Source: Nitrospirota bacterium (GTDB taxonomy: Bacteria; Nitrospirota; UBA9217). Taken from it: a stretch of DNA of 64,000 nt. The notes beneath the pieces were generated by a model. The model was not told the origin of the DNA. It ran no database searches and was given only the letters and a program-made list of their open reading frames with translations. The stretch spans positions 864,001-928,000 of the forward strand of contig CAWBNQ010000003.1 of the NCBI GenBank assembly GCA_963790205.1, in the 5' to 3' direction. Position numbers and translations under genes: made by a program. Positions 2,356-51,182 of this stretch are shown here, one piece after another (the first letter of the stretch is position 1; the number at the start of each line of letters is the position of its first letter).

Positions 2356-3669
2356 ATGACATCGAAGAAATCAATCAACGTCGGCATCATCGGTTTCGGC
2401 ACGGTCGGCACGGGAACGGCACGCATCCTGATCGAGAATGCAGACATCATCAAGCGCAGGCTCGGCGCGCCGGTCGTGCTCAAGATGATATCGGACCTCG
2501 ATGTAAAGCGCGATCGGGGCATAAATCTGAGCGGGGTTAAGCTCACGAGCGATGTGAAGGATATCATCAACAACCCCGGCATCGATATCGTCGTGGAGCT
2601 CATCGGCGGGTATAAACCGGCTAAAGAGTTCATCCTCGAGGCGATCAAGAACAAGAAACACGTGGTGACCGCGAACAAGGCGCTCCTGGCCGTCCATGGA
2701 GAGGAGATATACTCCGCAGCGGAGAAGGCCGGCGTCACCGTCGGATACGAAGCCTCTGTCGCGGGTGGAATCCCGATCCTCGCCGCCGTGAGGAGCGGAC
2801 TTGCAGCGAACAACATCAGGTCCATCTACGGCATCGTGAACGGCACCTGCAACTACATCCTGACGCTCATGACGAGCGCCGGCAGGAAGTTCGATGAGGT
2901 CTTGAAGGAAGCCCAGGCAAAAGGCTACGCCGAGGCCGATCCGACTTTCGATATCGAGGGCATCGATTCGGCTCACAAGCTTGCGGTCCTCACGATGCTC
3001 GCCTTCGGCACGCCGGTCAGGTTCGACGACATCTACACCGAGGGCATCTCAAAGATAACACCGCTCGATATCGATTTCGCGAGGGACCTCGGCTACAAGA
3101 TCAAACTCCTCGCCATTACCAAGACGGTGAATGACGAGATCGAAGCCCGCGTCCATCCGACCATGCTGCCCGAGACCTATCCCATTGCCACCGTTGACGG
3201 TGTGTTCAATGCGCTTTCGGTGGTCGGCGACGCGGTCGGCCCTACCATGTTCTACGGCCGGGGCGCCGGCGACATGCCCACGGGAAGCGCTGTGGTAAGC
3301 GATATCATCGACATCGGCAGGGACATCCTTGCGGGCTGTACTGACCGGTCGCCGGTCACGGCTTTCCGTGAGCGTAAGCCGCTTAAGATACGAAAGATGG
3401 ATGATATTACGTCGTGCTATTATCTCCGGTTCTCGGTTCTGGATAGACCGGGCGTTATGTCGCGCATTACGGGGGTGCTCGGCAGGAACAATATCAGCAT
3501 CTCCTCCATGATCCAGAAGGGACGCAAGGTGGACGAGGCCGTACCGGTCGTGATGATGACCCACGAAGCTATAGAACACAACGTTCGCAAGGCGCTCGCC
3601 GAGATCGATACCATGGACTGCGTGGCAGGGGCCACGGTCGTCATCAGGGTGGAAGAGGGAAAGCAGTAA
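2356..3669 (+). CDS. hom: Homoserine dehydrogenase with C-terminal ACT domain
   Basis: GFGTVG Rossmann motif, TANK, YEASVAGGIP, NGTCNYIL, GYAEADPTFD, DRPGV ACT. Confidence 0.96.
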   Translation: MTSKKSINVGIIGFGTVGTGTARILIENADIIKRRLGAPVVLKMISDLDVKRDRGINLSGVKLTSDVKDIINNPGIDIVVELIGGYKPAKEFILEAIKNKKHVVTANKALLAVHGEEIYSAAEKAGVTVGYEASVAGGIPILAAVRSGLAANNIRSIYGIVNGTCNYILTLMTSAGRKFDEVLKEAQAKGYAEADPTFDIEGIDSAHKLAVLTMLAFGTPVRFDDIYTEGISKITPLDIDFARDLGYKIKLLAITKTVNDEIEARVHPTMLPETYPIATVDGVFNALSVVGDAVGPTMFYGRGAGDMPTGSAVVSDIIDIGRDILAGCTDRSPVTAFRERKPLKIRKMDDITSCYYLRFSVLDRPGVMSRITGVLGRNNISISSMIQKGRKVDEAVPVVMMTHEAIEHNVRKALAEIDTMDCVAGATVVIRVEEGKQ

Positions 3670-3755
3670 TTGCGGATTTCAGATTTCGGATTTCGGATTG
3701 ACAGGCAAGCACGCTGCTTATAATATTCCGCAATTCGCAATGCGCAATCCGCAAT
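3669..3755. repeat. Inverted heptamer-array element (ATTTCGG-like / AATCCGC-like)
   Basis: attgcgg atttcag atttcgg atttcgg attg ... attccgc aattcgc aatgcgc aatccgc aat. Confidence 0.85.
3698..3726 (+). promoter_or_regulatory. Possible sigma70 promoter inside the repeat element
   Basis: TTGACA-N17-TAATAT (or N15-TATAAT). Confidence 0.45.
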
Positions 3756-3765
3756 GGAGGTTTCA

Positions 3766-8853: not shown

Positions 8854-10071
8854 GTGCTGATCGTTCAGAAATACGGCGGTACGTCGGTGGGAAACCCGGA
8901 GCGGATCAAGAACGTGGCAAAGCGTGTCGTCCGCACCAAGGAAGAGGGCCATGATGTTGTGGTGGTCCTCTCGGCCATGAGCGGCGAGACGGACAAACTG
9001 ATCAACCTTGCCAACCAAGTGAGTGAGAACCCGGATCCCCGTGAAATGGACATGCTGGTGTCCACGGGCGAGCGCGTGACCATCGCTCTTCTGGCCATGG
9101 CGATCCAGTCGCTCGGCCACAAGGCGCAGTCGTTTACCGGAAGGCAGGCGGGGATCGTCTCGGACAGCGTGCATACCAAGGCGCGGATAGAAAAGATCTC
9201 CGGTGAGCGGGTCAAACAGGCGATCAGGGAAGGGAAGATCGCCGTGGTCGCAGGATTCCAGGGCATCAACGAGCAGTCCGATGTAACGACGCTGGGCCGC
9301 GGAGGATCGGACCTTTCCGCCGTAGCAGTTGCGGCTGCGCTCAAGGCGGACCTCTGCGACATCTATACGGACGTGGACGGCGTGTATACGACGGACCCGA
9401 ACATGGTGCCGCAGGCCAGAAAACTCGACAAGATTTCCTATGACGAGATGCTTGAGCTGGCGAGCCTCGGGGCCAAGGTGCTCCAGACACGCTCTGTCGA
9501 GTTCGCTAAAAAATATAATGTTCCGGTAAGGGTACTCTCGAGTTTCAACGATAACCCGGGGACCCTCGTGACCAAGGAGGATCCTGATATGGAAAAAGTG
9601 GTGGTGTCCGGCGTGGCGTACGACAAGAACCAGGTAAAAGTGACGGTAACGGGCGTGCCGGACAAACCCGGCGTGGCAGCGAAAATATTCAACGAAATCT
9701 CGAACAACAATATCATCGTCGATATGATCATCCAGAACATCGGCGAGGGCGGGCTTACGGACATGTCCTTCACCGTGCCGAAGACGGATTCCAAAAAAAT
9801 CATGGAACTCATGAAGAAGGTCGTTGCCGAGATCGGCGCCAAGGGCGTTGCCGTGAAGGAAGATATAGCCAAGATATCGATCGTCGGCGTGGGTATGCGG
9901 TCCCACTCGGGCGTCGCCGCCAAGATGTTCTCCGCCATGGCCAAAGAGGGGATCAATATCATGATGATCAGCACGTCGGAGATCAAGATCTCCGTCGTGA
10001 TCGATGCCAAGTACACCGAACTCGCCGTCCGGGTGCTTCACGAAACCTTTGAGATGGACAAGGCCGCCTGA
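8854..10071 (+). CDS. lysC: Aspartate kinase
   Basis: [24 protein letters not shown], two ACT domains, STSEIKIS. Confidence 0.96.
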
Positions 10072-10152
10072 TTGCGGATTGTAGATTGCGAATTGCCGAA
10101 TAAAGACCTCTATTGATCGAAGCTTTTTAATCCGCATTCCGCAATTCGCAAT
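10071..10152. repeat. Inverted heptamer-array element (ATTGCGG / TCCGCAA type)
   Basis: attgcgg attgtag attgcga attgccg ... atccgca ttccgca attcgca. Confidence 0.85.
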
Positions 10153-10192
10153 GAGGATATTTGAAAAAGCGAATGATATTTCACAATACGAT

Positions 10193-12668: not shown

Positions 12669-14786
12669 ATGAAAAATACCGATATCAGGGAAATACGCAA
12701 CATCGCCATCCTGTCGCACGGCGCCGCGGGCAAGACGTCGCTTGCCGACGCCATGCTCTTCGCCGGGGGCGCGGTCGATCTTCAGGGCAGCGTCGACAAC
12801 AACACGTCGGTGTTCATGCACGAGCCCGAGGAGATCGCCAGAAAAATCACCATTACTGCGGCATTGGGCTTCGTCGACTGGAAGGGCGTGCGCATCAACA
12901 TTATCGACACTCCCGGCTATATCAACTTCCTCGAGGAAACCAAGGGTACGCTCCGCGCTGCTGACGGCGCTATCGTTATCGTGTCCGCGCTCTCCGGCGT
13001 CAAAGCCGAGACCGAGAAGATCTACAAATTCGCCTGCGACTACGAGATCCCCCGCATCGCCTTCGTGAGCAAACTCGACAAGGAGCGCGCCGATTTTTTC
13101 CGCGCCGTGGGCGACATGGAGAAATATTTCTGCAAAGGCTCCCTCATTCTTCAACTCCCCATCGGCCGCGAAGAGAATTTTATGGGCGTCATCGATCTGA
13201 TCAGGATGAAGGCGCTCTTCTTTGCCAAGGACGACAGCGGCAAGGTGGAGGAAAAAGAGATCCCCGGCACCATGAAGCAGGACGCCGCCGACTACCGGAA
13301 AAAACTGGTTGAACAGATCGCCGAGACGGAAGACAGTCTGCTCGAAAAATATCTGGAAAAGGGCGACCTCTCGCAAGAGGACCTGATCGCCGGGCTCAAG
13401 CACGGCACCCTGGGCGGCGGGCTCTTGCCGGTCCTGTGCGGCTCACCGGTCAGGAACATGGGCATACAGCAGCTCATGGATGCCGTGGTCATGTGCCTTC
13501 CGTCACCGGCTGAACGCGCCGGAATCGTGGCGATCAAAGGGAAGGACCCGAAAACCGACCAGGAGATCGCGCGCAAACCGAATCCCGATGAACCTCTCGC
13601 CGCGCTCGTTTTCAAGACCGTCATCGATCCCTTTGCCGGCAAGCTTTCCCTGGTACGGGTTTTTTCCGGTACGCTTAAGTCGGATTCCGCTGTTTATAAT
13701 TCGACGAAGCAGATAAAAGAAAAGATCGGGTCCTTGTTTCATGTCCAGGGGAAAAAGCAGGTTTCAGCGCAAGCGCTTTCCGCGGGACAGATCGGCGCCG
13801 TGGCCAAGCTCAAGGAAACATTGACCGGTGACACCCTCTGCGCCGAGGCCCAGCCGATCGTGCTCGATTTTGCGCATTTCATCGATCCGGTGATGTCTTT
13901 TGCCATCGAGCCGAAGTCACGGGGAGACGAAGACAAGGTAAGTTCGGGTCTCCACAAGCTTCTCGACGAAGACCCCACGCTCAGCTTTGCCTTTGACGAC
14001 CAGACCAAGGAAATGATCCTCTCGGGCATGGGCCAGGTGCATCTCGAGGTGACGCTCGAAAAGCTTAAGCGGAAATTCGGCGTTGACGTGAAGATGAAGA
14101 CCCCGAAGGTCCCTTACAAGGAAACCATCAGGACCAAAGCGAGCGCACAGGGCAAGTACAAAAAGCAGACCGGCGGCCACGGCCAGTACGGCGACGCGTG
14201 GCTCGAGATCGAGCCGCTGCCCCGCGGGAGCGGGTTCGAGTTCGTCGACCGGATCGTGGGCGGCGTGGTTCCCCGGCAGTATATACCGGCAGTTGAAAAG
14301 GGCGTGGCCGAGGCCATGCATGAAGGCGTGCTTGCGGGATATCCCATCGTGGACGTCAGGGTCGCGCTCTACGACGGCTCCTATCACACGGTGGATTCGT
14401 CCGAGATGGCGTTCAAAGTTGCCGCGTCCATGGCCTTCAAGAAAGCCATGGAAGCGGCCAAACCCGTCCTTCTCGAGCCCATTATGAGCGTCGAGGTGAT
14501 CGCGCCCGACGATACCCTGGGCGCCGTGATCGGAGACCTGAACTCGCGGCGCGGCAAAGTACAGGGAGTGGTCCCGCAGGCGAACGGGCAGACGATAAAA
14601 GCCATGGTCCCGATGTCCGAAATGCTTACCTACGCTCCCACGCTCAACTCTCTGACGAGCGGCAGGGGAATGTACTCCATGGAATACTTCGGCTATGAAG
14701 ACGTCCCGAGCCATCTGGCGCAAAAGATCATCCAGGAACGGGCCGCGCAACACGGCCACGCAAACCACAGCCAGAAAGAGAAATAA
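12669..14786 (+). CDS. fusA: Elongation factor G paralog (EF-G2-like)
   Basis: IRNIA, DTPG, KKQTGGHGQY, DGSYH.VDSS, LLEPIM; divergent G1 (SHGAAGKTS) and G4 (SKLD); not in str operon. Confidence 0.92.
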   Translation: MKNTDIREIRNIAILSHGAAGKTSLADAMLFAGGAVDLQGSVDNNTSVFMHEPEEIARKITITAALGFVDWKGVRINIIDTPGYINFLEETKGTLRAADGAIVIVSALSGVKAETEKIYKFACDYEIPRIAFVSKLDKERADFFRAVGDMEKYFCKGSLILQLPIGREENFMGVIDLIRMKALFFAKDDSGKVEEKEIPGTMKQDAADYRKKLVEQIAETEDSLLEKYLEKGDLSQEDLIAGLKHGTLGGGLLPVLCGSPVRNMGIQQLMDAVVMCLPSPAERAGIVAIKGKDPKTDQEIARKPNPDEPLAALVFKTVIDPFAGKLSLVRVFSGTLKSDSAVYNSTKQIKEKIGSLFHVQGKKQVSAQALSAGQIGAVAKLKETLTGDTLCAEAQPIVLDFAHFIDPVMSFAIEPKSRGDEDKVSSGLHKLLDEDPTLSFAFDDQTKEMILSGMGQVHLEVTLEKLKRKFGVDVKMKTPKVPYKETIRTKASAQGKYKKQTGGHGQYGDAWLEIEPLPRGSGFEFVDRIVGGVVPRQYIPAVEKGVAEAMHEGVLAGYPIVDVRVALYDGSYHTVDSSEMAFKVAASMAFKKAMEAAKPVLLEPIMSVEVIAPDDTLGAVIGDLNSRRGKVQGVVPQANGQTIKAMVPMSEMLTYAPTLNSLTSGRGMYSMEYFGYEDVPSHLAQKIIQERAAQHGHANHSQKEK

Positions 14787-16042
14787 TGTACAGAAAAGAC
14801 ACCCTCTCGAACGGCATACGGGTCGTGTCCGAAACCCTCCCGAAATCACGCTCCGTATCCATCGGCGTGTGGGTCAAGGTGGGCTCCCGGCATGAGCCGC
14901 CGGAGATCGGCGGCATATCACACTTCATCGAACATCTTTTTTTCAAAGGCACGCAGAAAAGGACCGCCAAGGACATCGCCATCGAGATGGATTCCATCGG
15001 CGGCGAGATGAATGCCTTCACTTCCCAGGAAACGACCACCTATTACGCAAAGGTGGTGGATGAGCACCTGCCCGTGGCCATCGATATCCTCTCCGATATT
15101 CTCCTCGGTTCCAAGTTCGATCCCGTGGAGATGGAGAAGGAGCGAAAGGTCATTCTTGAAGAGATCAAGGGGGTGGAAGATACGCCCGACGACTATATCC
15201 ACGAGCTCTTTACGAGCACGGTGTGGCCCGACAATCCGCTGGGCAGTCCCATCCTCGGGACCAAGGACACCATCAAGTCGCTTAAACACGAGAACATCAT
15301 AGCCTATATCGACAACTACTACAGCCCGAAAGAGATCGTGATCTCCGTGGCCGGCAATTTCGAGCATGCCCGTCTGATCGAGCTCCTGAACATGAGTTTC
15401 GGCAGGCTTTCGAGGACCGGTATTCCCAAAAAAGAGGGGACCCCGGCGTTCACCCGGGCAGTGGCGGTAAAGAAAAAACAGCTCGAACAGGTCCAGCTCT
15501 GCATCGGCTGCAAGGGTTTGAACTATACCCATGAAGACCGCTACGTGATCTCCGCGCTCAACACCGTGCTCGGGAACAGCATGAGCTCCCGTTTGTTCCA
15601 GGAAATTCGCGAGCAGAACGCGCTTGCCTACTCCATTTATTCTTACGTGACGTCTTACCGCGATACAGGACTCCTTACCGTGTATGCGGGAACTGATCCG
15701 TCGAACGCCCTTGAAGTGGCGCGGCTCGTTCTCAAGGAGTTTAAGAAAATAACCGAGGAGGGGATCACGCCCGCGGAAGAAACGAGGGTGAAGAACCAGA
15801 TCAAGGGGAGCCTCGTCCTCTCCCTCGAAAGCAGCAACAGCCACATGAGCCGGATCGCGCGGCAGGAAATGTATTACGGCAAATATGTGTCCATGGACGA
15901 CATCATCAGGGGAGTGGAGAAGGTCACCGCCGAGCAGGTGCAGCGCCTGGCGCAGCAGCTGTTCAGCCGGGAAAATCTTTCCCTGACCATCCTCGGACCG
16001 TTGAGCAGGGCTGATGTGCCGGATTCGGTGCTGGAGGTATAG
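14786..16042 (+). CDS. M16 family zinc peptidase
   Basis: HFIEH inverted HxxEH, NAFT, SSRLFQEIRE. Confidence 0.92.
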   Translation: MYRKDTLSNGIRVVSETLPKSRSVSIGVWVKVGSRHEPPEIGGISHFIEHLFFKGTQKRTAKDIAIEMDSIGGEMNAFTSQETTTYYAKVVDEHLPVAIDILSDILLGSKFDPVEMEKERKVILEEIKGVEDTPDDYIHELFTSTVWPDNPLGSPILGTKDTIKSLKHENIIAYIDNYYSPKEIVISVAGNFEHARLIELLNMSFGRLSRTGIPKKEGTPAFTRAVAVKKKQLEQVQLCIGCKGLNYTHEDRYVISALNTVLGNSMSSRLFQEIREQNALAYSIYSYVTSYRDTGLLTVYAGTDPSNALEVARLVLKEFKKITEEGITPAEETRVKNQIKGSLVLSLESSNSHMSRIARQEMYYGKYVSMDDIIRGVEKVTAEQVQRLAQQLFSRENLSLTILGPLSRADVPDSVLEV

Positions 16043-16049
16043 ATAATAA

Positions 16050-16085
16050 AGTCAGGAGTCTCTAGTCAGGAGTCAAGAGCCAGAA
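16050..16085 (+). repeat. Left heptamer array flanking four-helix-bundle gene
   Basis: agtcagg agtctct agtcagg agtcaag agccaga. Confidence 0.9.
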
Positions 16086-16096
16086 GATAAGAAAAA

Positions 16097-16487
16097 ATGG
16101 AAAAGGCGCAGATCAAAACATGTAGAGATTTGATCGTTTGGCGGAAGGCTCATGTACTTGCTAGAAAGGTTTTAGCGATAAGCAGAAACTTTCCAAAAAC
16201 TGAGGAAGCAAAAATCATTAGAACCCAACTTATCAAATCATCAACATCGGTCCCGGCGAATATAGCCGAGGGTTTTGGGGAGAATAAATAAAGGAAAGGT
16301 ATTTCAAAATTGTCTGACAATAGCCAGACGGGAGGCGGGTGAAACCGACTACTGGCTGTTGTTGAGCTTGGAGGAAGGATTTATTGAAGATAAAAGCATA
16401 CAGGAAGATACGGAAGGCGGCTATCGGGATGTCATCGCAATGTTATCCTCTTTAATTTCAAAAATGTCGAAGTTTTCCAACTCCTGA
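16097..16487 (+). pseudogene. Four-helix-bundle protein (23S rRNA IVS-protein / TIGR02436-like), frameshifted
   Basis: RDLIVWRKA...FPKTE...SSTSVPANIAEGFG then, in another frame, KVFQNCLTIARREAGETDYWL; break near 16277-16291. Confidence 0.85.
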
Positions 16488-16510
16488 CTTTTGACTCTTG
16501 ACTCCTGACT
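16480..16510 (-). repeat. Right heptamer array (reverse complement of left array)
   Basis: actcctg acttttg actcttg actcctg act. Confidence 0.9.
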
Positions 16511-16511
16511 T

Positions 16512-16964
16512 ATGAGTGATCACCTCGTTGTTCACATAACGCAGCTCAGGAATTCCAGCGGGCTCCCGATCCCTCACTATCAAACCGAACATTCCGCAGG
16601 CGTTGACCTCTACGCGGCAGTGGAAACCCAGGCGGTCATTGATGCGGGAACGTGGAAGCTCGTACCGACCGGGATTGCCATTGCCATCCCCGAGGGGTAT
16701 GAGGGGCAGGTGCGGCCCCGGAGCGGACTGGCGCTCAAGCACGGCATCGGCATGCTGAACGCGCCTGGCACCATTGACGCGGACTACCGCGGCGAGGTCA
16801 GCATAATCCTGTTCAATTTCAGCGATACGCCGTTTACGATCCATCGAGGAGATCGTATTGCGCAGCTTGTGTTTGCAAAGCTTGAAAAGGCGCGGTTCGA
16901 GATAGTCGATAACCTGTCCGCAACGGCGCGGGGCACAGGGGGGTTCGGGCATACGGGAAAGTAG
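16512..16964 (+). CDS. dut: dUTPase
   Basis: SAGVDL, RPRSGLA, PGTIDADYRGE, DRIAQ, RGTGGFGHTG. Confidence 0.97.
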   Translation: MSDHLVVHITQLRNSSGLPIPHYQTEHSAGVDLYAAVETQAVIDAGTWKLVPTGIAIAIPEGYEGQVRPRSGLALKHGIGMLNAPGTIDADYRGEVSIILFNFSDTPFTIHRGDRIAQLVFAKLEKARFEIVDNLSATARGTGGFGHTGK

Positions 16965-16993
16965 CATGTTCTCATTTCATCGCTGTATATTCG

Positions 16994-17022
16994 TTGACAG
17001 CTATGTTTACCTGTGGTAGAAA
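16994..17022 (+). promoter_or_regulatory. Possible sigma70 promoter for transglutaminase-fold gene
   Basis: TTGACA-N17-TAGAAA. Confidence 0.45.
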
Positions 17023-17069
17023 ACATAAGCTTGTTCATTCTTTCAATCAAACTGATTGGAGATCCAACT

Positions 17070-20000
17070 ATGCGGGCTTTCTTTAGGGCTTTGAAGACTG
17101 TATCCGTCATTACCCTGGTTTTCTTTTCGTGGACCTATCTGCCCCTTTATCAGATTGCTGCATATGCGGCAACGGAAAAGCAGGTGGCGGCAAACAGTGG
17201 GTTGGAGCCAATAGAAAAGCAAAAAACTAAAAAATCTGAGGAGAAAATCGAAAAAGCGCTTACTGACATTCGGGAGAAAACAACGAAGGTAGGCGATAAA
17301 GCTGCGCGGGGCGAAGATACGTCTGCTGAGATAGACGCGATCAAATCTCAAAAAACTGAAATAGAAGCGATAGACAGCGACCTCAGAAAAAATTTTGCCG
17401 CAACAGAGCAAAAACTCAAAGCAGCGAACCTTCCGAAAGAAATCCTCAGCCGTCATTATAAATTCGTCAAGAACTACGAGGATAATCTTGTCCAACTCAG
17501 GGCTAATATCGATACCATTGAGCAGGCAAAAACGCCTTCTGCCTTAACAACCGCAATTGCCAAAACCAATAAGTATCTCGATAAAGTGAAACCCCCGAAA
17601 AAAAGAAAGCCATTTGATCCGAACAAGCTTCCGAATAGAGGGCACCAGATAAAGCACGCTGCGCTAGAAGAGAAAAAGCCTGAGGGAAAAAAGATAAACT
17701 CCATTTCACCTTTAAGAAAAAGCTCAGGACTTAATCCCATAATTGAGCAGAAAACGGCTCAAGCTCGCCGTCCGATACTCGTCGCGTCAAATGGGCCGTT
17801 GGATGGTCTACTTTCAACCTCGCAGACAGAGGATCTGTCTTCACACGAACAACTTGCCAATCTTACCACAGACAGCCTCATAATGAATTCCGTAATCGCG
17901 GCCACGCAGCCTGCATCAGCAGCGGACCTTGCGGAAACCCCGGAAATCCAATTTACGCCGGCGATAAAAGCAAAAGCCCAGGAACTTGAGAACAAGCCAC
18001 TGAAAATATACGAATGGGTCAGAAACAACATCGAATTCGTTCCCACCTACGGCTCCATCCAGGGGGCCGATATGTGCTTCCAGACAAAACAGTGCAATGA
18101 CATTGACACAGCCTCGCTTCTTATCGCGCTTTTACGCGCTTCAAACATCTCCGCTCGTTACGTCTACGGAACCATAGAGATTCCAATAGATAAGGCTAAA
18201 AACTGGGTAGGCGGAGCAACCGATCCGAATATGGTCGGGACAATCCTAGCCACAAACGGCATACCCGCAAAAACACTAATTTCCGGCGGAACAGTCACCG
18301 CCGTACAACTTGAGCACGTTTGGGTAAATGCTTGGATAAATTACATACCCTCTCGTGGTGCAGTACACCGACCTGGGCATGAAGACACATGGATTCCGCT
18401 CGATGCAAGCTTCAAACAGTACGACTATACGCAGGGTATCGACATCTCATCGGCCGTACCATTTGACACCAACACCTTCGTAAATCAGATCCAATCAACG
18501 GCAACGATCAACCAAACTGATGGTTCAGTCACAAACGTAAACTCCACCTATGTCCAGCAGACCATGCAGGACTATCAGACTCAAGTACAGAATTACATAC
18601 AGCAGAACTATCCGAACGCCACAGTCGGAGACGTGATCGGCAAGAAGGAAATCATTCAGAAGAACTATCCAATTCTTGTTGGCACGCTTCCGTATAAAAC
18701 CATTCAGGTCAGCTCAGAATTTGCCCAAGTACCCGATAATCTGCGATACAAAGTAACTTTTGAAATCCGGGACTCAAACGCTACTGGGACTTCCCTTTCT
18801 TATACAATCGGCATCTCGGAATTAGATGGCAAAAGGGTTACTCTCTCCTATACGCCAGCCACTGCAAACGATGCCCAAGTTATAGACTCCTATAATGGGA
18901 TTTTTAATGTCCCCGCATATTTGGTTAACATGAAACCCCAGATAAAAATTGATGGAGTTGTAGCTGCGACCGGGAACCCAATCGGACTTGGAAACGATCA
19001 AACATTCAATATGCAATTTGTCAGTCCTGCTTACGGAACTGAAAGTGTATCAAATATTGTAACAGCAGGAGCGTATTATGGAATAGGAATCAATCCAAAC
19101 AAAGTGCCGCAAGAATTATTGGCTCAGAGAAAAACGAATCTGGAATCGGTCAAAGATACGACCTGTGTTAATAGCCCGTATGCTGATGAGTGCAGCGGTG
19201 AGTTACTTTATGCTACAGCGATGGGATACTTTTTTGTGGTCAATGGATTTGATGATATATTTGCACAGTCAAATGGCATAATCAAGATGAAAGACGTGTC
19301 AGAAGCCATCGTGTCAGATGGTGTAAGTGCGTCCAATTTATTTGGCATTCCCACGGGGATTACTGAGACCGGTTTGATGATTGATGTCGATAGAAATATA
19401 TATGTTGCTTTTCCCAAAGATGGTAATCAATCGAGGGTCCGTCAGTTCATGATGTCTGCTGGTCAGATGAGTTCTGCCATGGAGCATGGTATATTTGAAT
19501 CCATGTATCAGGAAAAAGGCGTTTCTACAGTACAAGTCTTGAAGCTTGCGAATGACCAAGGGATACCCATATATACCATTACCCAAAACAATATCTCCTC
19601 CATTTTACCTGCGTTACAGATTTCAGACGAAGTAATAAACGATATTCAAAATGCAGTCAATGCAGGCAAGACTGTTATTGTCCCGAAGCAAAATATCACA
19701 TACTACAATTGGACAGGCACCGGCTATGTCGTAATGGATTCACAAACGGGAGCGGGTGCTTATATGATTAGTACAAGCTTGGCAGGGGGAGGTTGTTGCA
19801 TTGCCGCTGGAGGATTGCCTGTTGGATGTACAATCATAGATCTCGAGCATAAAATGACTCCACTGTATTTTCTCGCCGTGATTGGAACCGCAATCGGGAC
19901 TGTGAGTATGTTGGTATGGGGCCTAGGGGCTTTGGTTAGTGCCGGATTATTTTTAGCTTTTGCCGTACTTGCTCCCATTGTACTGCTGATCGCTATTTTG

Positions 20001-20252
20001 GCGGCATTCATTATAGCTGCCATGGTTATGGCATTGATTGGCTATTATAGTAATCAAGCGGCCATCTTCCCAAGTAAAAGGAGAAAAAATGAAATTAGAA
20101 ATCAATTTGCACTTTGTCCTAATTATATTTTTGATAATGGTATGGCTTGGCGTAATATATATAAAAGCAGTGGTTCGTCAATTGAAAAAGCAGATAAACG
20201 CGGCAACCGATATAGAATATATAGGCAAATCACGGTGCGAATCTGCGGCTAA
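17070..20252 (+). CDS. Large secreted transglutaminase-like domain protein with hydrophobic C-terminal region
   Basis: Signal-peptide-like N-terminus; IYEWVRNNI...DTASLLIALLRASNISARYVYG...HVWV...WIPLD; TGAGAYMIS then Ala/Leu/Ile-rich TM segments; AT-rich codon use. Confidence 0.8.
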   Translation: MRAFFRALKTVSVITLVFFSWTYLPLYQIAAYAATEKQVAANSGLEPIEKQKTKKSEEKIEKALTDIREKTTKVGDKAARGEDTSAEIDAIKSQKTEIEAIDSDLRKNFAATEQKLKAANLPKEILSRHYKFVKNYEDNLVQLRANIDTIEQAKTPSALTTAIAKTNKYLDKVKPPKKRKPFDPNKLPNRGHQIKHAALEEKKPEGKKINSISPLRKSSGLNPIIEQKTAQARRPILVASNGPLDGLLSTSQTEDLSSHEQLANLTTDSLIMNSVIAATQPASAADLAETPEIQFTPAIKAKAQELENKPLKIYEWVRNNIEFVPTYGSIQGADMCFQTKQCNDIDTASLLIALLRASNISARYVYGTIEIPIDKAKNWVGGATDPNMVGTILATNGIPAKTLISGGTVTAVQLEHVWVNAWINYIPSRGAVHRPGHEDTWIPLDASFKQYDYTQGIDISSAVPFDTNTFVNQIQSTATINQTDGSVTNVNSTYVQQTMQDYQTQVQNYIQQNYPNATVGDVIGKKEIIQKNYPILVGTLPYKTIQVSSEFAQVPDNLRYKVTFEIRDSNATGTSLSYTIGISELDGKRVTLSYTPATANDAQVIDSYNGIFNVPAYLVNMKPQIKIDGVVAATGNPIGLGNDQTFNMQFVSPAYGTESVSNIVTAGAYYGIGINPNKVPQELLAQRKTNLESVKDTTCVNSPYADECSGELLYATAMGYFFVVNGFDDIFAQSNGIIKMKDVSEAIVSDGVSASNLFGIPTGITETGLMIDVDRNIYVAFPKDGNQSRVRQFMMSAGQMSSAMEHGIFESMYQEKGVSTVQVLKLANDQGIPIYTITQNNISSILPALQISDEVINDIQNAVNAGKTVIVPKQNITYYNWTGTGYVVMDSQTGAGAYMISTSLAGGGCCIAAGGLPVGCTIIDLEHKMTPLYFLAVIGTAIGTVSMLVWGLGALVSAGLFLAFAVLAPIVLLIAILAAFIIAAMVMALIGYYSNQAAIFPSKRRKNEIRNQFALCPNYIFDNGMAWRNIYKSSGSSIEKADKRGNRYRIYRQITVRICG

Positions 20253-20529
20253 GAATTCCAATGTAATGGCTAAGTTTCACAAAATTGTCGTCGCAGTCAT
20301 GCTTATTTTGATTGTTGTTTTTGTTGGCGATGAACTGGGGCGAATATTTGTTTTTTTTAGAAACTCGTCCGCGATAGATGAACCTAGTATCTCGAAACTG
20401 TCAAGACTTATTAACGTTAGTTGGTTGTTAGGCTTACTGGCCTATGGCGGGTTTTGGTATATGGTTCGTATTGTACGTGACTACAGCGTTGATCTCGTGA
20501 AAAAATGCAAAGAATTACAACAGCGATAA
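20089..20529 (+). CDS. Small multi-TM hypothetical protein (candidate immunity protein)
   Basis: AAGGAG RBS before MKLEINL; three hydrophobic segments. Confidence 0.65.
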   Translation: MKLEINLHFVLIIFLIMVWLGVIYIKAVVRQLKKQINAATDIEYIGKSRCESAAKNSNVMAKFHKIVVAVMLILIVVFVGDELGRIFVFFRNSSAIDEPSISKLSRLINVSWLLGLLAYGGFWYMVRIVRDYSVDLVKKCKELQQR

Positions 20530-20538
20530 GAGATATTC

Positions 20539-21225
20539 ATGGCTGTTCCTTATAATTTTTATACCGGGTTCAAATGTAAGACAACGTTCATGGCGGCCGG
20601 AACGGGTCTCTTGATGGGATATTTTGCGAGTATCTTTGTCCCGCTGCGGTCCCATCCTTTGGTCAGCTTCCTACCTGTGCCACTAGGTGGACTAGTGGCG
20701 ATGATTGCTAATCTGTGGGTTGTCAGAAGTTATATCAAGGGTAAAAAAAGAGGACTCTTTGAGTATGTTTACAGAGAGTCACATCTTGATCCCATACTAA
20801 AATCGAAAATTGCGAATGCCTGGCCGGGGGCGTTTAATGCAGTGGTTGAATTAGAGTCGCTGGCACTGTACAAAGCGCTGATGGCCCAAGCAGATCACCT
20901 GATCGACGACACACGTTTCCTGCTCTATATGGCTGCCGCGAGGGTTGCCTCAATTGGGAGCGAAGACAAAAATGCCATAGAAGCTCTCAAGCATGCTCTC
21001 ATGATTAAACCATATGATGTAATCGCAAATTTCAGACTTGCCAGATCATTCGAGCGAATCGATTCTGCTACGGAGGCGATAAAAGCATATGAAACTGCTC
21101 TTCTTGATCCAACTATCGATGCAGAAGAACTCAAGGCGTTTATTTCGGATCAGGTGCAGCGGGTAAGAGAAAAGGGGCCAGAACAGCGCTCGCCGATTCC
21201 CGGGCTTATATATCAATTAATGTAA
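20539..21225 (+). CDS. Membrane-anchored hypothetical protein with TPR-like C-terminus
   Basis: Two N-terminal TM segments; AIEALKHALMIKPYDVIANFRLA...EAIKAYETAL. Confidence 0.65.
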   Translation: MAVPYNFYTGFKCKTTFMAAGTGLLMGYFASIFVPLRSHPLVSFLPVPLGGLVAMIANLWVVRSYIKGKKRGLFEYVYRESHLDPILKSKIANAWPGAFNAVVELESLALYKALMAQADHLIDDTRFLLYMAAARVASIGSEDKNAIEALKHALMIKPYDVIANFRLARSFERIDSATEAIKAYETALLDPTIDAEELKAFISDQVQRVREKGPEQRSPIPGLIYQLM

Positions 21226-34062: not shown

Positions 34063-34542
34063 CTAAGGCCCGGACCTGTTTGAGGAACCGGGCACTTTTT
34101 TATTCGTCTCCGTCAATCCCATCCTCCCGACATGCGTTCCCATCCAATACACCCTTTTACAGGTCATGCACTGTAAAAACGTCTCATGCTTTTCGTAGAC
34201 ATAGAACGGCACGAGGTCCTTTACTTTTTTTCGGGAAATTGCGGCGAGCGGTTCATTGCATACGGAACAGCGGGTGAGGGGCTGCGGAAGCACGCTTCGT
34301 GGAAAAGCGGCAAGGACTTGCCGCATTTGCGCGCGGCTATCGTCGTTGGTAATCAAGAGGTGGTTGGCTGCCAGGGGACGTTCGGCAAGGGCGGTATCCC
34401 GCGTCAGGATTACCCGGTCCTGCTCGAGAGAAAGGCGGATAACTTCGTTGTCATCGTTCGTCCTGTCATAGAGGACGTCGAATCCGAGCAGTCTCATCCG
34501 CTTCGCGAGCCTGCCCAGCATGACATCGGCGATGAATTTCAT
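34063..34542 (-). CDS. Mut7-C (PIN-like) RNase domain protein
   Basis: MKFIADVMLGRLAK..R..G.D, LTRD, RC..CN, C..C..VYW.GTH. Confidence 0.9.
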   Translation of the reverse strand: MKFIADVMLGRLAKRMRLLGFDVLYDRTNDDNEVIRLSLEQDRVILTRDTALAERPLAANHLLITNDDSRAQMRQVLAAFPRSVLPQPLTRCSVCNEPLAAISRKKVKDLVPFYVYEKHETFLQCMTCKRVYWMGTHVGRMGLTETNKKVPGSSNRSGP

Positions 34543-34547
34543 AAAAG

Positions 34548-34632
34548 CGAGTAGGCAGTAGGCGGTAGGCAGTAGTCAGGGGTATGACAGGTTTAAGCAT
34601 TCCCTGTATGCTGTCTACTGTATATCGTATAC
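34548..34632. repeat. Inverted heptamer element (GCAGTAG / CTACTG)
   Basis: gagtagg cagtagg cggtagg cagtag ... ctgtcta ctgtata. Confidence 0.7.
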
Positions 34633-45454: not shown

Positions 45455-46366
45455 TCAATTGGCTTTGCATGATTGTACGGCAAGCGCGCCGCTGCGGCCG
45501 TCGATCGTTCCGGGGGTCAGATCGCACACGGGAATGCTTTCCGGGTTCTTTAAAAGTTCTCGCGCCAGGTCGTCCAGTTTTACGACCCGCATTGATTGCG
45601 TTTTCATTTGTGTCAGGAAGGATTCGAAGTAGGAAAGCTGCCGCATGCCCTCAAGCTCGGCATGGATGGTGAGCACGTTCAGCTTGCCGGGGAGCACGAG
45701 GGAACGATAATGGTCCGCGATGCGCGCAACGGGATATTCAGGCCTTCCCAGCAGCTCGTCGAGCGTCGGGAGCGTGGTCGGTATCTGCAGGGTCTTATAC
45801 ACGACGCCTTCCACACGGGGGAAAAAGGGGTGCGTCCCGCGGCAGTCGCTCGCGTAGCGCAGGTCCGCCTCGTCATAGGCCGCAAGGCTGAAGCCGTTCG
45901 CCTGCCAGCCCGCTGATCCGGCGGTCTTTGCAGGGGTCCTGAAAATGCGCTCGAACTCTTTTCGCGCTTTGCCGAATTCGATAAACACTTCGTCGCGTGT
46001 CATGCTTGCGAGCCCGTCCTGCCAGCGGATGTGATCGTAGCAGTGGATGCCGACCTCGTGGCCCTTGTCGCGCGCCATGCGCATCACACCTTCGTTCCGG
46101 CGGCCCACGTGCGGACCGGGGAGCAGGACCCCGTTCAGGAGCGTGCGGACCCCGTAAGTGGATACCACGCTGGTACGGCTCACCTTGCTCAGGAATCCGG
46201 GACGAAAGATACGCTTGATGGCGCGGCCGGTATTGTCCGGTCCGAGGGAAAAGAGAAAAGTAGCCGGCACCGCGAACTCGTCGAAAAGAGCAACGAGATT
46301 CGGCACGCCGATACGCGTGCCCCGGTCGGTGTCAACGTCCACTTTAATGGCGAGGGTGGTTTGCAT
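45455..46366 (-). CDS. arnD: ArnD-like deformylase (polysaccharide deacetylase family)
   Basis: KVDVDT.RGT, GPDNTG, H.YDH..WQD, TLPTLDE, HAELEG; last gene of arn operon. Confidence 0.85.
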   Translation of the reverse strand: MQTTLAIKVDVDTDRGTRIGVPNLVALFDEFAVPATFLFSLGPDNTGRAIKRIFRPGFLSKVSRTSVVSTYGVRTLLNGVLLPGPHVGRRNEGVMRMARDKGHEVGIHCYDHIRWQDGLASMTRDEVFIEFGKARKEFERIFRTPAKTAGSAGWQANGFSLAAYDEADLRYASDCRGTHPFFPRVEGVVYKTLQIPTTLPTLDELLGRPEYPVARIADHYRSLVLPGKLNVLTIHAELEGMRQLSYFESFLTQMKTQSMRVVKLDDLARELLKNPESIPVCDLTPGTIDGRSGALAVQSCKAN

Positions 46367-46481
46367 AGTTCGTAGTCAGGAGTTCGTAGTCCAGAGCCCG
46401 GAGTGCGGAGTCCGGAGCGCAGGGTCGTTCGCAGCGCAGCATAGGGTTTTACTACGAACTCCAGCTCTACACTCCCAACTG
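46367..46481. repeat. Inverted heptamer-array element (AGTNCGG / ACTNCAG type)
   Basis: agttcgt agtcagg agttcgt agtccag agcccgg agtgcgg agtccgg ... actacga actccag. Confidence 0.8.
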
Positions 46482-46484
46482 TAT

Positions 46485-47527
46485 TTAAACGTCCAGTTCC
46501 TTTGACGGCCTGCCGAGATGATAGTCGAGGGTCTTCCGGAGCGCGGTCTTGAGGTCTGTGGTCGGTTTCCAGCCGAGGTACTTTGCGGCGTTCTCGACGG
46601 ACGGTACGCGGGTCAGGATGTCCTGGTATCCTTCACCGTAGTACTCTTTGGATTGCACGTTCACGAGCTTGACGCTTTCGGCGAGCTTCGCGTACTTCGG
46701 ATAGGTCTTGATGAGGGCGATCAGCGTCTCCGCCAGTTCCCGGATCGACATGTCGTTGGCGGGATTGCCGATATTGAAGATGCGGCCATCCGCGGCAGTT
46801 GTCCCTGTTCTCGATGATGCGGATGAGCGCATCGATGCCGTCGTCGATATAGGTGAAGCTCCGCCGCTGGGCCCCGCCGTCCACGAGCTGGATGTCCTTG
46901 CCGCGCAGGATATTGCCGATGAATTGGGTGAGCACGCGCGAGCTGCCTTCCTTGGGCTCCAGGATGTTGTCGAGCTTGGGGCCGATCCAGTTGAAAGGAC
47001 GGAAGAGGGTGTACCTGAGCCCCTCCTTCATGCCGTAGGCGTGGATCACGCGGTCCATGAGCTGCTTGGAACAGGAATAGATCCAGCGCGGCTTGTTGAT
47101 CGGGCCGAGCACGAGGTTCGACGTCTCTTCGTTGAACTCGCGGTCCGCGCTCATGCCGTAGACCTCGGACGTGGACGGGAAGAGCACTCGTCTTTTTGTA
47201 CCGTACGCATTGCCGCACGATCTCGAGGTTGGCCTCGAAGTCGAGCTCGAAAACGCGCAGGGGGTCCAGGACATAGGTCGCCGGCGTCGCGATGGCCACC
47301 AGAGGAAGGACCACGTCGCATTTCTTGACGTGATACTCGATCCATTCCCGGTTGATGGTGATGTCGCCCTCGACAAAATGAAAGCGTTCATGCCCCAGGC
47401 ACTGGTCGAGTTTGTCTGCGGCCATGTCCATGCCATAGACCTCCCAGTCCTTGTGCTTGAGGATATACTCGGTCAGGCTGTTCCCGATAAAGCCGTTTAC
47501 GCCGAGGATCAAAACTTTCAGACTCAT
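46485..47527 (-). pseudogene. UDP-glucuronate oxidase/decarboxylase (ArnA C-terminal-domain-like), two apparent frameshifts
   Basis: [35 protein letters not shown] across three frames; breaks near 47195 and 46795. Confidence 0.85.
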
Positions 47528-47560
47528 GGTTGTTCTCTCCATTTTTGGTTGATACGTGCG

Positions 47561-47612
47561 GTCATTCCGGGTTTGCAAGCCTGCTCTGCAGGAGTAACGC
47601 AGCGGGAATGAC
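47561..47612. repeat. GTCATTCC...GGAATGAC palindromic element
   Basis: Perfect 8-bp terminal inverted repeat, intergenic. Confidence 0.7.
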
Positions 47613-47638
47613 GAATAAAATGACTTACACTTCGTATT

Positions 47639-48562
47639 CTACGTTCCGAGAACCTGCCCGACTTTCAATCCCGTCGCTTCCGCCGGCGCATCATCTTCAT
47701 CGGCGTCATCCCATTCCATATTGATGATCTCAAGGCTTCCTGAACCCGTTGTCACCAGCAGCGGATCGAGTGAAAGGACCTCTCCCGGTGCTCCCGTTGC
47801 CGGTCCGGCCGGCTTTGCCCACCAGATGAAAAGCCGTTTCCCCCCGACCTCGGTGAAAGCCCCGGGGTAGGGCTCGGTCACGGCGCGGATGAGATTATAT
47901 ATCGTTTCCGCGCTCTCTGTCCAGTCGATTCGGCCGTCTTCGGGTTTGCGGCCGCCGAACGTGGTGGCCAGCGTCTCGTCCTGTTTACGCCGCGGCGCTG
48001 TGCCCTGCGTCAGCGCGGCGAGCTGACGCTCAAGCACGAGGCGCGCTGCCTTCACACATTTGTTGAAAACATCCTGTGAAGTGTCCTCGTATCCGATAGG
48101 GACCGTTTCCTGGTCCACGATGTCGCCGGCATCGGCGCGCTTTACCATATGGTGCAGCGTTACGCCGGTCTCTGTTTCTCCGCTGCAGTACGGCCCAGTT
48201 GATCGGGAGCGCGGCCGCGGTATTTCGGGAGGAGCGAACCGTGCATGTTGAAGGCCCCGAGGCGCGGGATGTTCAGGATCTCCTCCTTGATCATGTTCCG
48301 GTAGTAGAAGGAGAAGATAAGGTCCGGCTCCCATGCTTTGATCCGCTCGATCCATTCCGGGGTGTTTACCGACTCGGGCGCATACACGGGGATGCCGTAG
48401 TGGCGCGCAAGACCGGCCACCGACCGGAACCAGATCTCTTCGCTCCGGGTTGTCCTCATGGGTGATGACGGCGAGTATGTACTCGTCATTCTGGATCAGC
48501 ACATCCAGACACTCATAGCCGACGTCGTGGTACGCGAAAACCAATATGGCGGGTTTACTCAT
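47639..48562 (-). pseudogene. Formyltransferase (ArnA N-terminal-domain-like), frameshifted
   Basis: [33 protein letters not shown]...DAG, PYPGAF across frames. Confidence 0.85.
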
Positions 48563-49503
48563 TCTTCGATCCTCTCATAGACCTTACGGATAACGAAGCG
48601 GGGCCGCCGCCTGCACTTCCTTGTAGATACGGCCGATGTATTCGCCGATGATGCCGAGTCCCATGATGCCGACGCCGACGAGGAAGTACAGGATCGCGAA
48701 GAGGGTGAATACGCCCTCGGCCTCGGGTCCCACGATCAACCGCCGGATGAACAGGTAGATCACGAACAGCGTGCTCAGGATCGATACGACCATGCCGAAG
48801 AGCGTGAACACCTGAAGCGGCACCACGGAGAAGCCGGTCATAAGGTCGAAGTTCAGCCGGATCAGGTCATACAGACCGGTACTTGGACTCTCCCGCCGCG
48901 CGCGCCGCGTGCTCGACCTCCACTTCCGTCGGTTTGGCGGCATAGCTGTACGCGAGCGCCGGGATGAAGGTCGAGGTCTCCTGGCTCGCCACGATGCTCT
49001 CGATGATGTTCTTCCGGTAGGCCCGGAGCATGCAGCCCTGGTCCTTCATCCGGATGTTCGTGATCTTCGCGCGAATGCCGTTGATGATCTTCGATGCGTA
49101 CTTTCCGGAAGAAGGAGTCGTGACGGTTCTTGCGATAGCCGCCGACCACGTCGTGCCCCGCCTCGATGGCGGCGAGCAGTTTGGGGATCTCTTCGGGCGG
49201 GTTCTGCAGGTCGGCATCGAGCGTCACGACCACCTCGCCGCGCACCCGCTCGAAGGCGGCCATGATCGCCATGTGCTGGCCGAAATTGCCGTTAAAGTCG
49301 ATGAAGCGGACCTGTCCCGGGCGCTGCTTGTGGAACTCTTCGAGCATGGCGCCGGACCGATCGCGGCTCCCGTCGTTCGTGAACAGAATTTCATAGGGCT
49401 TGCCGAGCTTGTCCATGACCGTGGTCAGGCGCGTAAAAAGGGCATGCAGGTTTTCCTGCTCGTTGTAGACCGGGATGACGATGCTTACGTAAGGTTTGCT
49501 CAT
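48559..49503 (-). pseudogene. arnC: ArnC-like GT2 undecaprenyl-phosphate glycosyltransferase, frameshifted
   Basis: IPVYNE, NDGSRD, DADLQNPPEEI, two C-terminal TMs, GEYIGRIY; about three frame breaks. Confidence 0.82.
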
Positions 49504-49505
49504 GA

Positions 49506-50666
49506 TCATTTCCTCTGGAACAGGTCGGCCATGGCCGCGATCACCCGGTCCTGGTCCGCGTCGGTCATTACCGGGAAGAGCGGCAGGCTCACGATGCGGT
49601 CGGAAATGGTCTCGGCATTCGGAAAATCGCCGCGTTTGAAGCCGAAGTGTTCGCGGTAGTAGGGATAGAGATGGACGGCCCGGTAGTGGAGGCCGGTCCC
49701 GATGTTGCGCTCTTTCATCCCCTGCATGAAAGCGTCCCGGTCCATGCCCGCGGCATCGGGATTGACGAGCGGCGTGTAGAGGTGCCAGGCATGGAGGTGC
49801 GAATAGGCCGGGGCCGCGGGCAGCGATACCTGGGGCCAGCCGGCAAGGAGCTTCTGGTAGCGGAGGGCGAGCTCGGTGCGTCGCTTGATGAAACCGTCGA
49901 GTTGTTTCAGCTGATGGAGCCCGAGCGCCGCCTGGATGTCCATCATATTGTACTTGTATCCCGGCGCGATGATCTCGTAGTGCTGGCTTCCCTTTTTGCC
50001 GAAGCGGTTCCAGGCCTCGCGGTCCATGCCGTGGAACCGCAGGAGCGCCACCGCCTCCGCCATCTTGTCGTCGCGGGTGACCACGCAGCCGCCTTCGCCG
50101 GTCGTCATGTTCTTGTTGGGGTGGAAGCTGAAGACCTGGACGTCGCCGAAGCTCCCGATGCGTTGCCCCTTGTACTCCGTGCCGATGGCGTGCGCCGCGT
50201 CCTCGATCACGCGGAGGTTGTGCTTCTTCGCAATGTCGTACAGCGGGTCAAGGTCCACGGGAAGGCCCGCAAAGTGCACGGGCATGATCGCGCGGGTGTG
50301 TTTGGTGATCGCCTTTTCGAGCTTTGCCACATCCATATTATAGGTGCCCGGCTCGACGTCGACGAGCACGGGCTTGCCGCCCGTGAGCACGATCGTGTTC
50401 AGGGTCGCGGCAAAGGTCATCGGCGTGGTGATCACCTCGTCACCGGGCTTGAGCTCAAGCGCGGCCAGCACCAGGTGCAGCCCCGCCGTGGCCGACGAGA
50501 GCGCCAGGGCGTGGGGGGCCTGGCAGTAGGCCTTGAGGTCGTCCTCGAACTGCTTGACCCGGGGGCCGGTGGTTATCCATCCGGACTTGAGGCACGCCAC
50601 GACCTCGTCAATGGCGTCCTGGCTGATGGACGGCCGGGAAAAGGGGAGAAATTCTTCGTTCGACAT
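49506..50666 (-). CDS. arnB: ArnB-like DegT/DnrJ aminotransferase
   Basis: SGWITTGP, EDAAHA, SFHPNKNMTTGEGG, GYKYNM. Confidence 0.88.
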   Translation of the reverse strand: MSNEEFLPFSRPSISQDAIDEVVACLKSGWITTGPRVKQFEDDLKAYCQAPHALALSSATAGLHLVLAALELKPGDEVITTPMTFAATLNTIVLTGGKPVLVDVEPGTYNMDVAKLEKAITKHTRAIMPVHFAGLPVDLDPLYDIAKKHNLRVIEDAAHAIGTEYKGQRIGSFGDVQVFSFHPNKNMTTGEGGCVVTRDDKMAEAVALLRFHGMDREAWNRFGKKGSQHYEIIAPGYKYNMMDIQAALGLHQLKQLDGFIKRRTELALRYQKLLAGWPQVSLPAAPAYSHLHAWHLYTPLVNPDAAGMDRDAFMQGMKERNIGTGLHYRAVHLYPYYREHFGFKRGDFPNAETISDRIVSLPLFPVMTDADQDRVIAAMADLFQRK

Positions 50667-50720
50667 TTGGCATCCTCGTTATTAATTAATAAAAAATAAG
50701 TAGAAAAAAATCTAAGGCAT

Positions 50721-50798
50721 CTCTCGCAAAGGGCGCCAAGAACGCCAAGAAAACCGATGCTTGATTTAAAACCTTTGCGACCTTTGCGCCTTGGCGAG
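50721..50798. repeat. Inverted 8-9-mer element (CGCCAAG / CTTTGCG)
   Basis: tctcgcaaagggcgccaagaacgccaag ... ctttgcgacctttgcgccttggcgaga. Confidence 0.8.
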
Positions 50799-50816
50799 AA
50801 AAATGCTTTGTATTTC

Positions 50817-51182
50817 TCAGCTTTTCGTCACAAAATACACTCCCACGCAGATGATCAGGATCCCGGTGATGCGCGAGAGGGAAAGGTTCTCCTGGAACAG
50901 GTAGTACCCCGCCACGGCGTTCACGATGTATCCCACGGAGAGCAGGGGATAGGCGAAGCTCACCTCGACGCGGGACAGGACCAAAAGCCAGACCGCGACG
51001 CTGACCACGTAGCAGGCCAGGCCGCCCAGGATGAAGAAGTTCCCGGCGACCTGTACGGCGATGGGGAAGAAGTTGGCCCAGACAAACTCGAAGTGGCCGA
51101 TCCGGCGCATGCCTTCTTTCAGGAACAGCTGGGCCGCGGCATTCAGCATGACGCCGAGCATGATGAGGGGAAGATAGCTCAT
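50817..51182 (-). CDS. SMR/EamA-like flippase (ArnE/ArnF-like)
   Basis: Four TMs, WL.VLSRVEVS.AYP. Confidence 0.85.
   Translation of the reverse strand: MSYLPLIMLGVMLNAAAQLFLKEGMRRIGHFEFVWANFFPIAVQVAGNFFILGGLACYVVSVAVWLLVLSRVEVSFAYPLLSVGYIVNAVAGYYLFQENLSLSRITGILIICVGVYFVTKS

Follow-up and report, generated by a model that had tools for sequence, protein, structure and literature searches.

What kind of genetic unit is the small AT-rich gene that, in a Nitrospirota genome, is found between two housekeeping genes and enclosed by two inverted arrays of heptamers? The window analysed here, a stretch of 64,000 nucleotides (positions 864,001 to 928,000 of contig CAWBNQ010000003.1), carries on its forward strand a peptidase M16 gene (14786..16042) and the dUTPase gene dut (16512..16964), both recognised from their open reading frames and a family scan. 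The cassette lying between these two host genes, about 461 nt long, starts 7 nt after the M16 stop with a left arm of five forward-strand heptamer units (16050..16084), which read AGTCAGG, AGTCTCT, AGTCAGG, AGTCAAG and AGCCAGA in this order, the clade consensus being AGTCA-NN; it continues with a forward-strand gene of the four-helix-bundle family TIGR02436/PF05635, identified by profile search (16097..16487), and ends with an inverted right arm (16476..16510, reverse strand) composed of four clear units, in reverse complement (16483-16510), and a degenerate fifth one (16476-16482). The TGA stop of the gene (16485-16487) falls within the right arm, which ends 1 nt before the dut ATG (16512); the best inverted pairs between the two arms are of 31 nt at 81% and of 23 nt at 91%. 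The GC content of the gene is 41.7%, against 54-57% for the contigs. The initial annotation had described inverted heptamer arms flanking an AT-rich gene, the right one overlapping the stop and falling one nucleotide short of dut, and the coordinates confirm both points, with five units on each side when the degenerate one is counted.

The gene itself, initially taken for the content of a filled cassette, is a pseudogene; a frame-shifting 4-nt tandem duplication (16283..16292, forward strand) brings in a premature TAA at 16289-16291 and splits it into a first frame (16097-16291) and a second one ending at 16487. Both halves pass the TIGR02436 cut-off of 24 bits (50.1 and 34.1 bits), while PF05635 is passed by the N-terminal half, the match of the C-terminal half lying under the cut-off; intact homologues exist (P0002-P0005), the pseudogene being up to 85% identical to them (85% to P0002). 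Since the window copy also deviates from these homologues at the conserved columns 9, 16 and 62, gene decay fits the sequence better than a lone sequencing error. A search of sequencing runs for words of the window listed no RNA run, and no run of any kind with half of the words (best share 0.28); three peat-metagenome runs from a single study do contain contigs of a related strain with the same cassette at the same junction. The peat allele lacks the 4-nt duplication and carries a 1-nt deletion of its own at 16324, and its counterpart of 16459-16506 is replaced by 15 nt with two heptamer units. In the piece compared, for which 40 of the 43 differences are listed, 28 listed substitutions fall in the gene, 16 of them synonymous and 12 non-synonymous. 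For a neutral gene, between about a quarter and a third of the differences would be expected to be synonymous; as the observed share is higher, purifying selection likely acted on the gene at the M16-dut junction before it broke twice independently. Internal stops are seen in 17 of the 219 loci of the protein family. Along window positions 15400-17200 the related strain of run X1 differs from the window at 1 of 454 bases in the M16 piece but by 7-10% across cassette and dut. This contrast suggests a patch acquired by recombination, the M16 and cassette/dut pieces being on separate contigs.

No enzyme that could move the cassette was recognised in it or beside it. The absence of an adjacent transposase or integrase, already noted in the initial annotation, holds for the six proteins scanned around the cassette, none of which matches a transposase or integrase family, and the sole profile matches between the arms are PF05635 and TIGR02436, with neither a transposase nor an HUH (Y1) domain. 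The neighbours are EF-G, the peptidase M16, the dUTPase and a transglutaminase-domain gene. No pair of template and variable repeats was found within 15800-16800, and a search of Rfam at E up to 1 gave just three weak chance matches, the cassette not being located in an rRNA gene. Downstream of dut an island (17013-21225) separates it from a second M16 gene (21319); it contains the 1079-aa transglutaminase-domain gene (44% GC) and a small open reading frame, and in most of the relatives examined from the same family of bacteria the second M16 gene follows dut directly, without this island.

As regards the encoded protein, a structure model of the intact homologue P0002 (pLDDT 89) has four helices and superposes with a TM score of 0.81 on 2GSC and of 0.73 on Avd (PDB 4DWL, 14% identity); the link to the Avd fold proposed initially thus holds in the model comparison for Xcc0516, BT_0352 and Avd, and the likeness of PF05635 to Avd is already in print (PMC10053308, partial text). 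Because of the homology to Avd and to 2GSC and 2RLD, which have five chains each, the protein of the cassette clade is predicted to form a homopentameric ring. Avd is a pentamer which binds an RNA stem-loop, with bases flipped and inserted between protomers, and which assists its reverse transcriptase (RT) without taking part in the chemistry (10.1101/2023.10.23.563531, in its available part).

The arms are a feature of the whole protein family. When the flanks of TIGR02436/PF05635 genes were inspected, as the initial annotation had proposed, a period-7 or period-8 array was found on at least one side of 189 of 219 distinct full-length loci, and period-7 arrays on both sides of 101 of the 219, compared with 22 of the 3822 genes called in the genome as background. 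In the 103 loci kept for an arm-partner test (8 of 111 were dropped), an inverted match of at least 17/21 was found in 75% with the arm's own partner and in 13% with swapped partners. Moreover, among 95 loci with concordant arms, the units of proteins that are 55-75% identical agree at 4.9-5.4 of 7 positions (baseline 3.7), at distances at which four-fold degenerate sites have fallen to chance level (0.26-0.28), with the qualification that these pairs are not independent and that four-fold identity is lowered by differences in host GC; the arm units track the protein clade past the saturation of synonymous sites. With units picked at a match of at least 4/7 to a reference, the conserved positions are AGTCA-NN in the clade of the window gene (14 loci, 136 units) and A-N-N-CAG-N in another clade (37 loci), and unit types are clade-specific across phyla; no single-residue code for the unit was seen by eye on the tree. 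In the same 95 loci, four, five and six units are present in 20, 44 and 14 left arms and in 25, 45 and 9 right arms, the mode of five coming from a count biased against arms of fewer than four units.

How exceptional the arms are in their own genome is a different matter. Judged against rough gene calls, the genome contains 377 period-7 arrays, 303 of them mostly intergenic, at 269 of 3808 called junctions; period 8 gives 70 arrays, the harmonic period 14 gives 217, and periods 4, 5, 10, 11 and 13 give 22-36. The cassette, which had appeared nearly unique, belongs instead, as a pseudogene copy, to a class that is very common, and at least four gene-less pairs are present in the window alone (3666-3759, 10068-10158, 34542-34632 and about 46367-46480). 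The last one (46367..46480, no strand assigned; fold -45.2 kcal/mol) had been singled out initially as a related element without cargo: it is a real gene-less hairpin of the same class as the cassette arms, but with AGTTCGG-like units of another family, so that it is one of the 377 arrays and not the same element. Around it, window positions 45455-52861 on the reverse strand look, from the starts of their open reading frames, like an arn-type operon of lipid A modification, apparently broken into several short frames around 46482-48459. The three intact family genes of the genome are also armed, each with a different unit; four weak TIGR02436 matches (profile 4-69; G000 C1:76852, C1:993051, C1:658769 and C1:770467), lying inside open frames of 189-300 aa, were left out of the family-gene counts.

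Such an abundance of arrays is what would be expected if the heptamers were simple repeats made by slippage, one of which happened to receive a sporadic AT-rich gene; indeed, polymerase slippage has been proposed for the heptamer excess (as cited in the accessible text of PMC4692102). A coincidence of this kind is highly improbable: the two-sided arrays of the family loci far exceed the background given above, the units are clade-specific across phyla, and, as far as sequence comparison can tell, the match between arm partners, the conservation of units and the clade-specific positions largely refute it. At least 10 matches to two array patterns were found in 18 of 19 genomes with a family gene and in 2 of 11 without, a comparison of 30 genomes in which weak matches to profile positions 4-69 were not counted as genes, kin are not independent, assemblies are incomplete and three genomes break the correlation, so that its P value is overstated.

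The placement of the arrays raises another explanation, namely that of a host regulatory network in which the ring binds the arrays at gene junctions and tunes translation, termination or mRNA decay, its own arms being autoregulatory and any movement being due to ordinary recombination between arms. The median distance from the stop of the preceding gene to the start of a G-rich arm is 2 nt; of 244 arrays at co-oriented junctions, 123 are near an inverted partner, compared with 26 of 1220 controls; few divergent junctions carry an array (13 of 385, compared with 228 of 3037 co-oriented ones); the TAACTGA repeats of Beggiatoaceae, for which translational control was proposed by MacGregor in 2015, most often end 1 nt before start codons (PMC4679880, in the part available). 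We consider this explanation unlikely: a genome with four family genes displays dozens of unit types, the window gene apparently broke twice, and the behaviour of the junction and the footprints at CRISPR repeats, described below, fit it poorly.

A further question is whether the arms act as RNA. The initial annotation had supposed that they pair in mRNA or ssDNA to loop out the gene, and one can imagine the cassette as an mRNA intervening sequence, the stem being cut by RNase III and the RNA of the gene released, so that processing would be the purpose of the arms. The region 16030-16530 does fold with the arms paired (-139.1 kcal/mol; z -2.66; 1 of 100 shuffles as good), with an arm duplex of -42.9 kcal/mol, and in Coxiella the intervening sequence (IVS) of the 23S rRNA has 5' heptamer repeats at which RNase III cuts (PMC4990558, partial text). 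The antisense duplex is however as stable (-43.5 kcal/mol), and selection for pairing finds no support in the mismatches: these are mostly transversions (253 of 419), and no sense-strand excess of G-U was found in 95 filled cassettes (85 vs 81) or in 100 empty hairpins (88 vs 106), the M16-dut hairpins alone leaning to sense-strand G-U (20 vs 13). The mirror-order match of the arms is 23.0 of 28, compared with 22.3 for unit-shuffled arms (of 75 loci, 56 score above and 16 below their shuffled arms), a result to which little weight is given since the test is biased upward by ragged end units. Processing as the purpose of the arms is accordingly a quite improbable reading in our judgement. Because the mismatches are mostly transversions and sense-strand G-U is not in excess, the arms bear a closer resemblance to a pair of inverted sets of putative binding sites than to a selected RNA helix; cutting of the stem by RNase III is possible, and may represent a by-product or a step of mobilisation.

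Whether the unit is mobile can be approached from the M16-dut junction of related bacteria, a check that had been suggested at the outset. The dut loci of 57 other genomes of the family were collected, and 53 were retained after dropping four with no upstream M16 gene on the locus. The four-helix-bundle gene is present at the junction in none of the 53, and the unit therefore comes and goes; the junction measures 7-257 nt, being shorter than 50 nt in 10 of the 53, and carries a gene-less hairpin in 26 and an AGTCAGG-type array in 8. The alternative that the initial annotation had set against its own proposal, a gene in stable synteny whose homologues generally lack arms, is not what is observed, given this absence and the arms at 189 of 219 loci. 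On an M16 tree of 51 rows (three of 54, with short M16 matches, were dropped), the near-identical sisters L263 and L264 (branches 0.004 and 0.011) carry different types of hairpin at M16-dut. The content of the junction thus appears to be exchanged quickly, which recombination between congeners could bring about as well as mobility; this switch between sisters, as well as the 10 short junctions, speaks against a regulatory role of the arrays. Palindromic repeats other than heptamer arrays occupy the junction in L013, L235 and L259. Downstream of dut, one left-arm array with units of the GCGGAAT/TTCGGAG family begins at or near the stop in L012-L014, L017-L020, L023, L024, L029 and L030, its unit family being different from the one found before dut; each junction seems to retain a family of units that it prefers. 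With the N-terminal part as query, no close homologue of the window gene was found in 63 genomes of the family (best 52%), and for this reason the sequences favour a recent arrival of the gene over its ancestral presence; an ancestral filled site which was emptied in the other lineages is, formally, an alternative history.

Indications of insertion come from relatives of the window copy in metagenomes. The 27 best metagenome loci for the window clade and its nearest neighbours, some of them near-duplicates, are at unrelated sites, among them gaps separating cytochrome genes or tRNA genes; seven loci lie in cas operons and six beside CRISPR repeats or pieces of them. Sister-clade cassettes with GTGATTA-type arms (L169-L171, L174) lie between two tRNA-like genes, by eye tRNA-Pro and tRNA-Arg. 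At CRISPR arrays the order is a full repeat, the unit, and then the 3' 25 nt of the host repeat, lacking its first 11-12 nt, the unit itself consisting of a small GC hairpin, the left arm, the gene or an empty loop, and the right arm. This pattern was found in seven loci (L163, L166, L341-L344 and L366), which have units of 141-499 nt and represent five distinct repeat cores; seven of their repeat-piece boundaries agree at 24-25 of 25 nt, and in five others the piece is shorter or degenerate. No full repeat is present on the contig of L344, nor on that of L160, which has an additional 25-nt repeat piece. In L366 the duplicated piece is followed by a stretch of spacer length and then by a full repeat; in L167 an 11-nt repeat piece is followed by a spacer-length stretch and a full repeat, and in the middle of the array four empty units, a filled one and another empty one are found with 11-nt duplications. 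The CRISPR-resident units occupy L163:1523-2182, L166:350-1300, L167:211-1440, L341-L344 and, on the reverse strand, L366:1430-1975. With L163 and L166 belonging to the clade of the window gene, and L341-L344, L366 and the first gene of L167 to other clades, residence at CRISPR repeats, which are type III-like, is seen in at least three protein clades, some units being in tandem.

Since in each host the duplicated piece corresponds to the resident repeat, insertion by staggered duplication of the target is indicated, and these footprints constitute good sequence evidence of insertion, in relatives rather than in the window copy; the proposal of a mobile unit made in the initial annotation gains from both the footprints and the 53 junctions that lack the gene, and the 25-nt duplications are left unexplained by a regulatory network. 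Full spacer acquisition by Cas1 would duplicate the whole repeat; as just a part of it is duplicated, the mechanism, judging from these sequences, is not plain spacer acquisition. At the cassette in the window no bracketing direct repeat that would represent a target-site duplication is seen, and the small GC hairpins that terminate CRISPR-resident units are missing; the window copy could for these reasons have come by recombination into a pre-existing AGTCA hairpin.

The cas loci bear also on the published observation that the protein family occurs beside cas1/cas2, in CRISPR adaptation modules (2023, PMC10910872, in the part available). The cassette lies between the RT gene and cas1 in L154, L157 and L158, while in L270 and L271, whose RT is 63-66% identical to that of L156, the junction is naive, the RT stop directly abutting the cas1 ATG. 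Because such naive junctions exist and some copies are broken, these positions suggest that family copies near cas1/cas2 are passenger insertions. An obligate accessory role for RT-Cas1 was considered and rejected, given the abutting genes of L270 and L271, four RT-Cas1 fusions (L272-L275) with no family gene between their domains, and the stop in the copy of L154. An unfused RT-cas1-cas2 module with a cassette at the RT-cas1 junction is found in L154, L156-L159 and L161; the RT frame runs into the left arm in L157 and L158, and a HicB-like gene and a repeat remnant precede the cassette in L156. In L168 (2870-2995) the right arm is missing, and the sequence after the gene resembles what we take to be an IS21-type end. 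In the genome under study, an intact family gene is located about 6 kb from cas1, which belongs to an operon read as type I-C, and is separated from the array by another gene. No RT is present in the window, the two RT matches of the genome (C3:663501 and C5:292679) being a 440-aa frame with the look of a group II intron RT and a short partial one, and most loci of the protein family have no linked mobilising enzyme.

Taken as a whole, it is somewhat probable in our view that the window element represents a decayed copy of a cassette made of gene and arms and likely mobile, in which the predicted pentamer ring binds the arms and a host enzyme acts in trans. The pentamer would read the AGTCA-NN units, one per subunit, and the ring, being non-catalytic, would mark the cassette or a gene-less derivative of it for the enzyme, the first guess for which would be a reverse transcriptase, because Avd partners an RT, and the second a Cas1-type integration. 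Insertion would take place just behind stop codons or repeat ends, at transcribed junctions, where it would be tolerated given that the unit points the same way as its neighbours and preserves the start codon that follows; afterwards the gene would decay or be deleted between the arms, giving empty hairpins either left behind or mobilised in turn. A wider version, according to which there is a class of mobile elements without any enzyme of their own, whose Avd-like ring reads five repeats by a clade code, recruits a host RT or Cas1-type integrase and copies filled and empty units into gene junctions and into the 3' ends of type III repeats with duplication of 25 nt, is tentative and rather doubtful.

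Several known systems share features with such a cassette. One is the helix-45 IVS of Coxiella burnetii, which encodes S23p of the same protein family and is of similar size (428-444 nt). Like the cassette, it is bounded by terminal inverted repeats, carries tandem heptamers before its ATG and has a decaying reading frame; the available text of PMC4990558 treats the heptamers as a local and not a family-wide feature. In effect the cassette is the counterpart, outside rRNA, of an ORF-bearing rRNA intervening sequence: the stem of terminal inverted repeats that marks 23S IVSs is present, but the location is that of a unit between protein genes, M16 and dut, with relatives in cas operons, CRISPR arrays and tRNA clusters. 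Diversity-generating retroelements (DGRs) share with it the Avd fold, whereas the cassette has neither an adjacent RT nor template and variable repeats, and its arms are periodic. Intergenic heptamers such as TAACTGA of Beggiatoaceae (PMC4679880) and GGGAATC of Xanthomonas, with about 70 inverted pairs (PMC4692102), hug stop or start codons as the cassette arms do; for the former an unidentified repeat-binding protein was suggested as a possible mobile element, four-helix/S23 proteins are absent from the accessible text of that paper, and no partner protein is named in that of the latter.

MITE/IS and REP/RAYT systems consist of many gene-less inverted-repeat copies and of few gene-bearing ones. 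The cassette resembles them in its many empty and few filled units and in the target duplication of its CRISPR-resident relatives, but differs in that it has no transposase or HUH cargo and in that its ends consist of degenerate periodic arrays, with units of many types; none of the enzymes that define DGRs, IS/MITE or REP/RAYT is found in the window cassette. Within the literature searched, for the most part openly accessible main texts, no paper was found on a unit of gene and heptamer arms outside rRNA or at CRISPR repeats, nor one that joins a reverse transcriptase, Cas1 and a four-helix bundle; heptamer arms of this family appear to be published, in the texts available, for the Coxiella rRNA IVS alone, and the figure legend on the cas1/cas2 link in PMC10910872 mentions neither arms nor a repeat duplication. 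The single pieces, that is the Coxiella heptamers, the orphan intergenic heptamers, the likeness of PF05635 to Avd and the link of the family to CRISPR, have been published separately, and their joining appears new with respect to the sources seen.

The window copy, being a pseudogene, is a poor experimental subject, and the intact natural homologues P0002-P0005 are at hand; the clade-specific units open a direct test, the binding of cognate compared with non-cognate arms, and rings with different specificities for short repeats could serve as binding modules. A CRISPR array, for its part, is a natural reporter of insertion, since its state before insertion is known. The cassette ties together three open items, namely the function of the PF05635-type family, the excess of intergenic heptamers and the origin of ORF-bearing rRNA intervening sequences; if the class of elements without an enzyme of their own were real, much of the heptamer-repeat excess of bacteria would be explained, and the Avd of DGRs would be a domesticated member of it.
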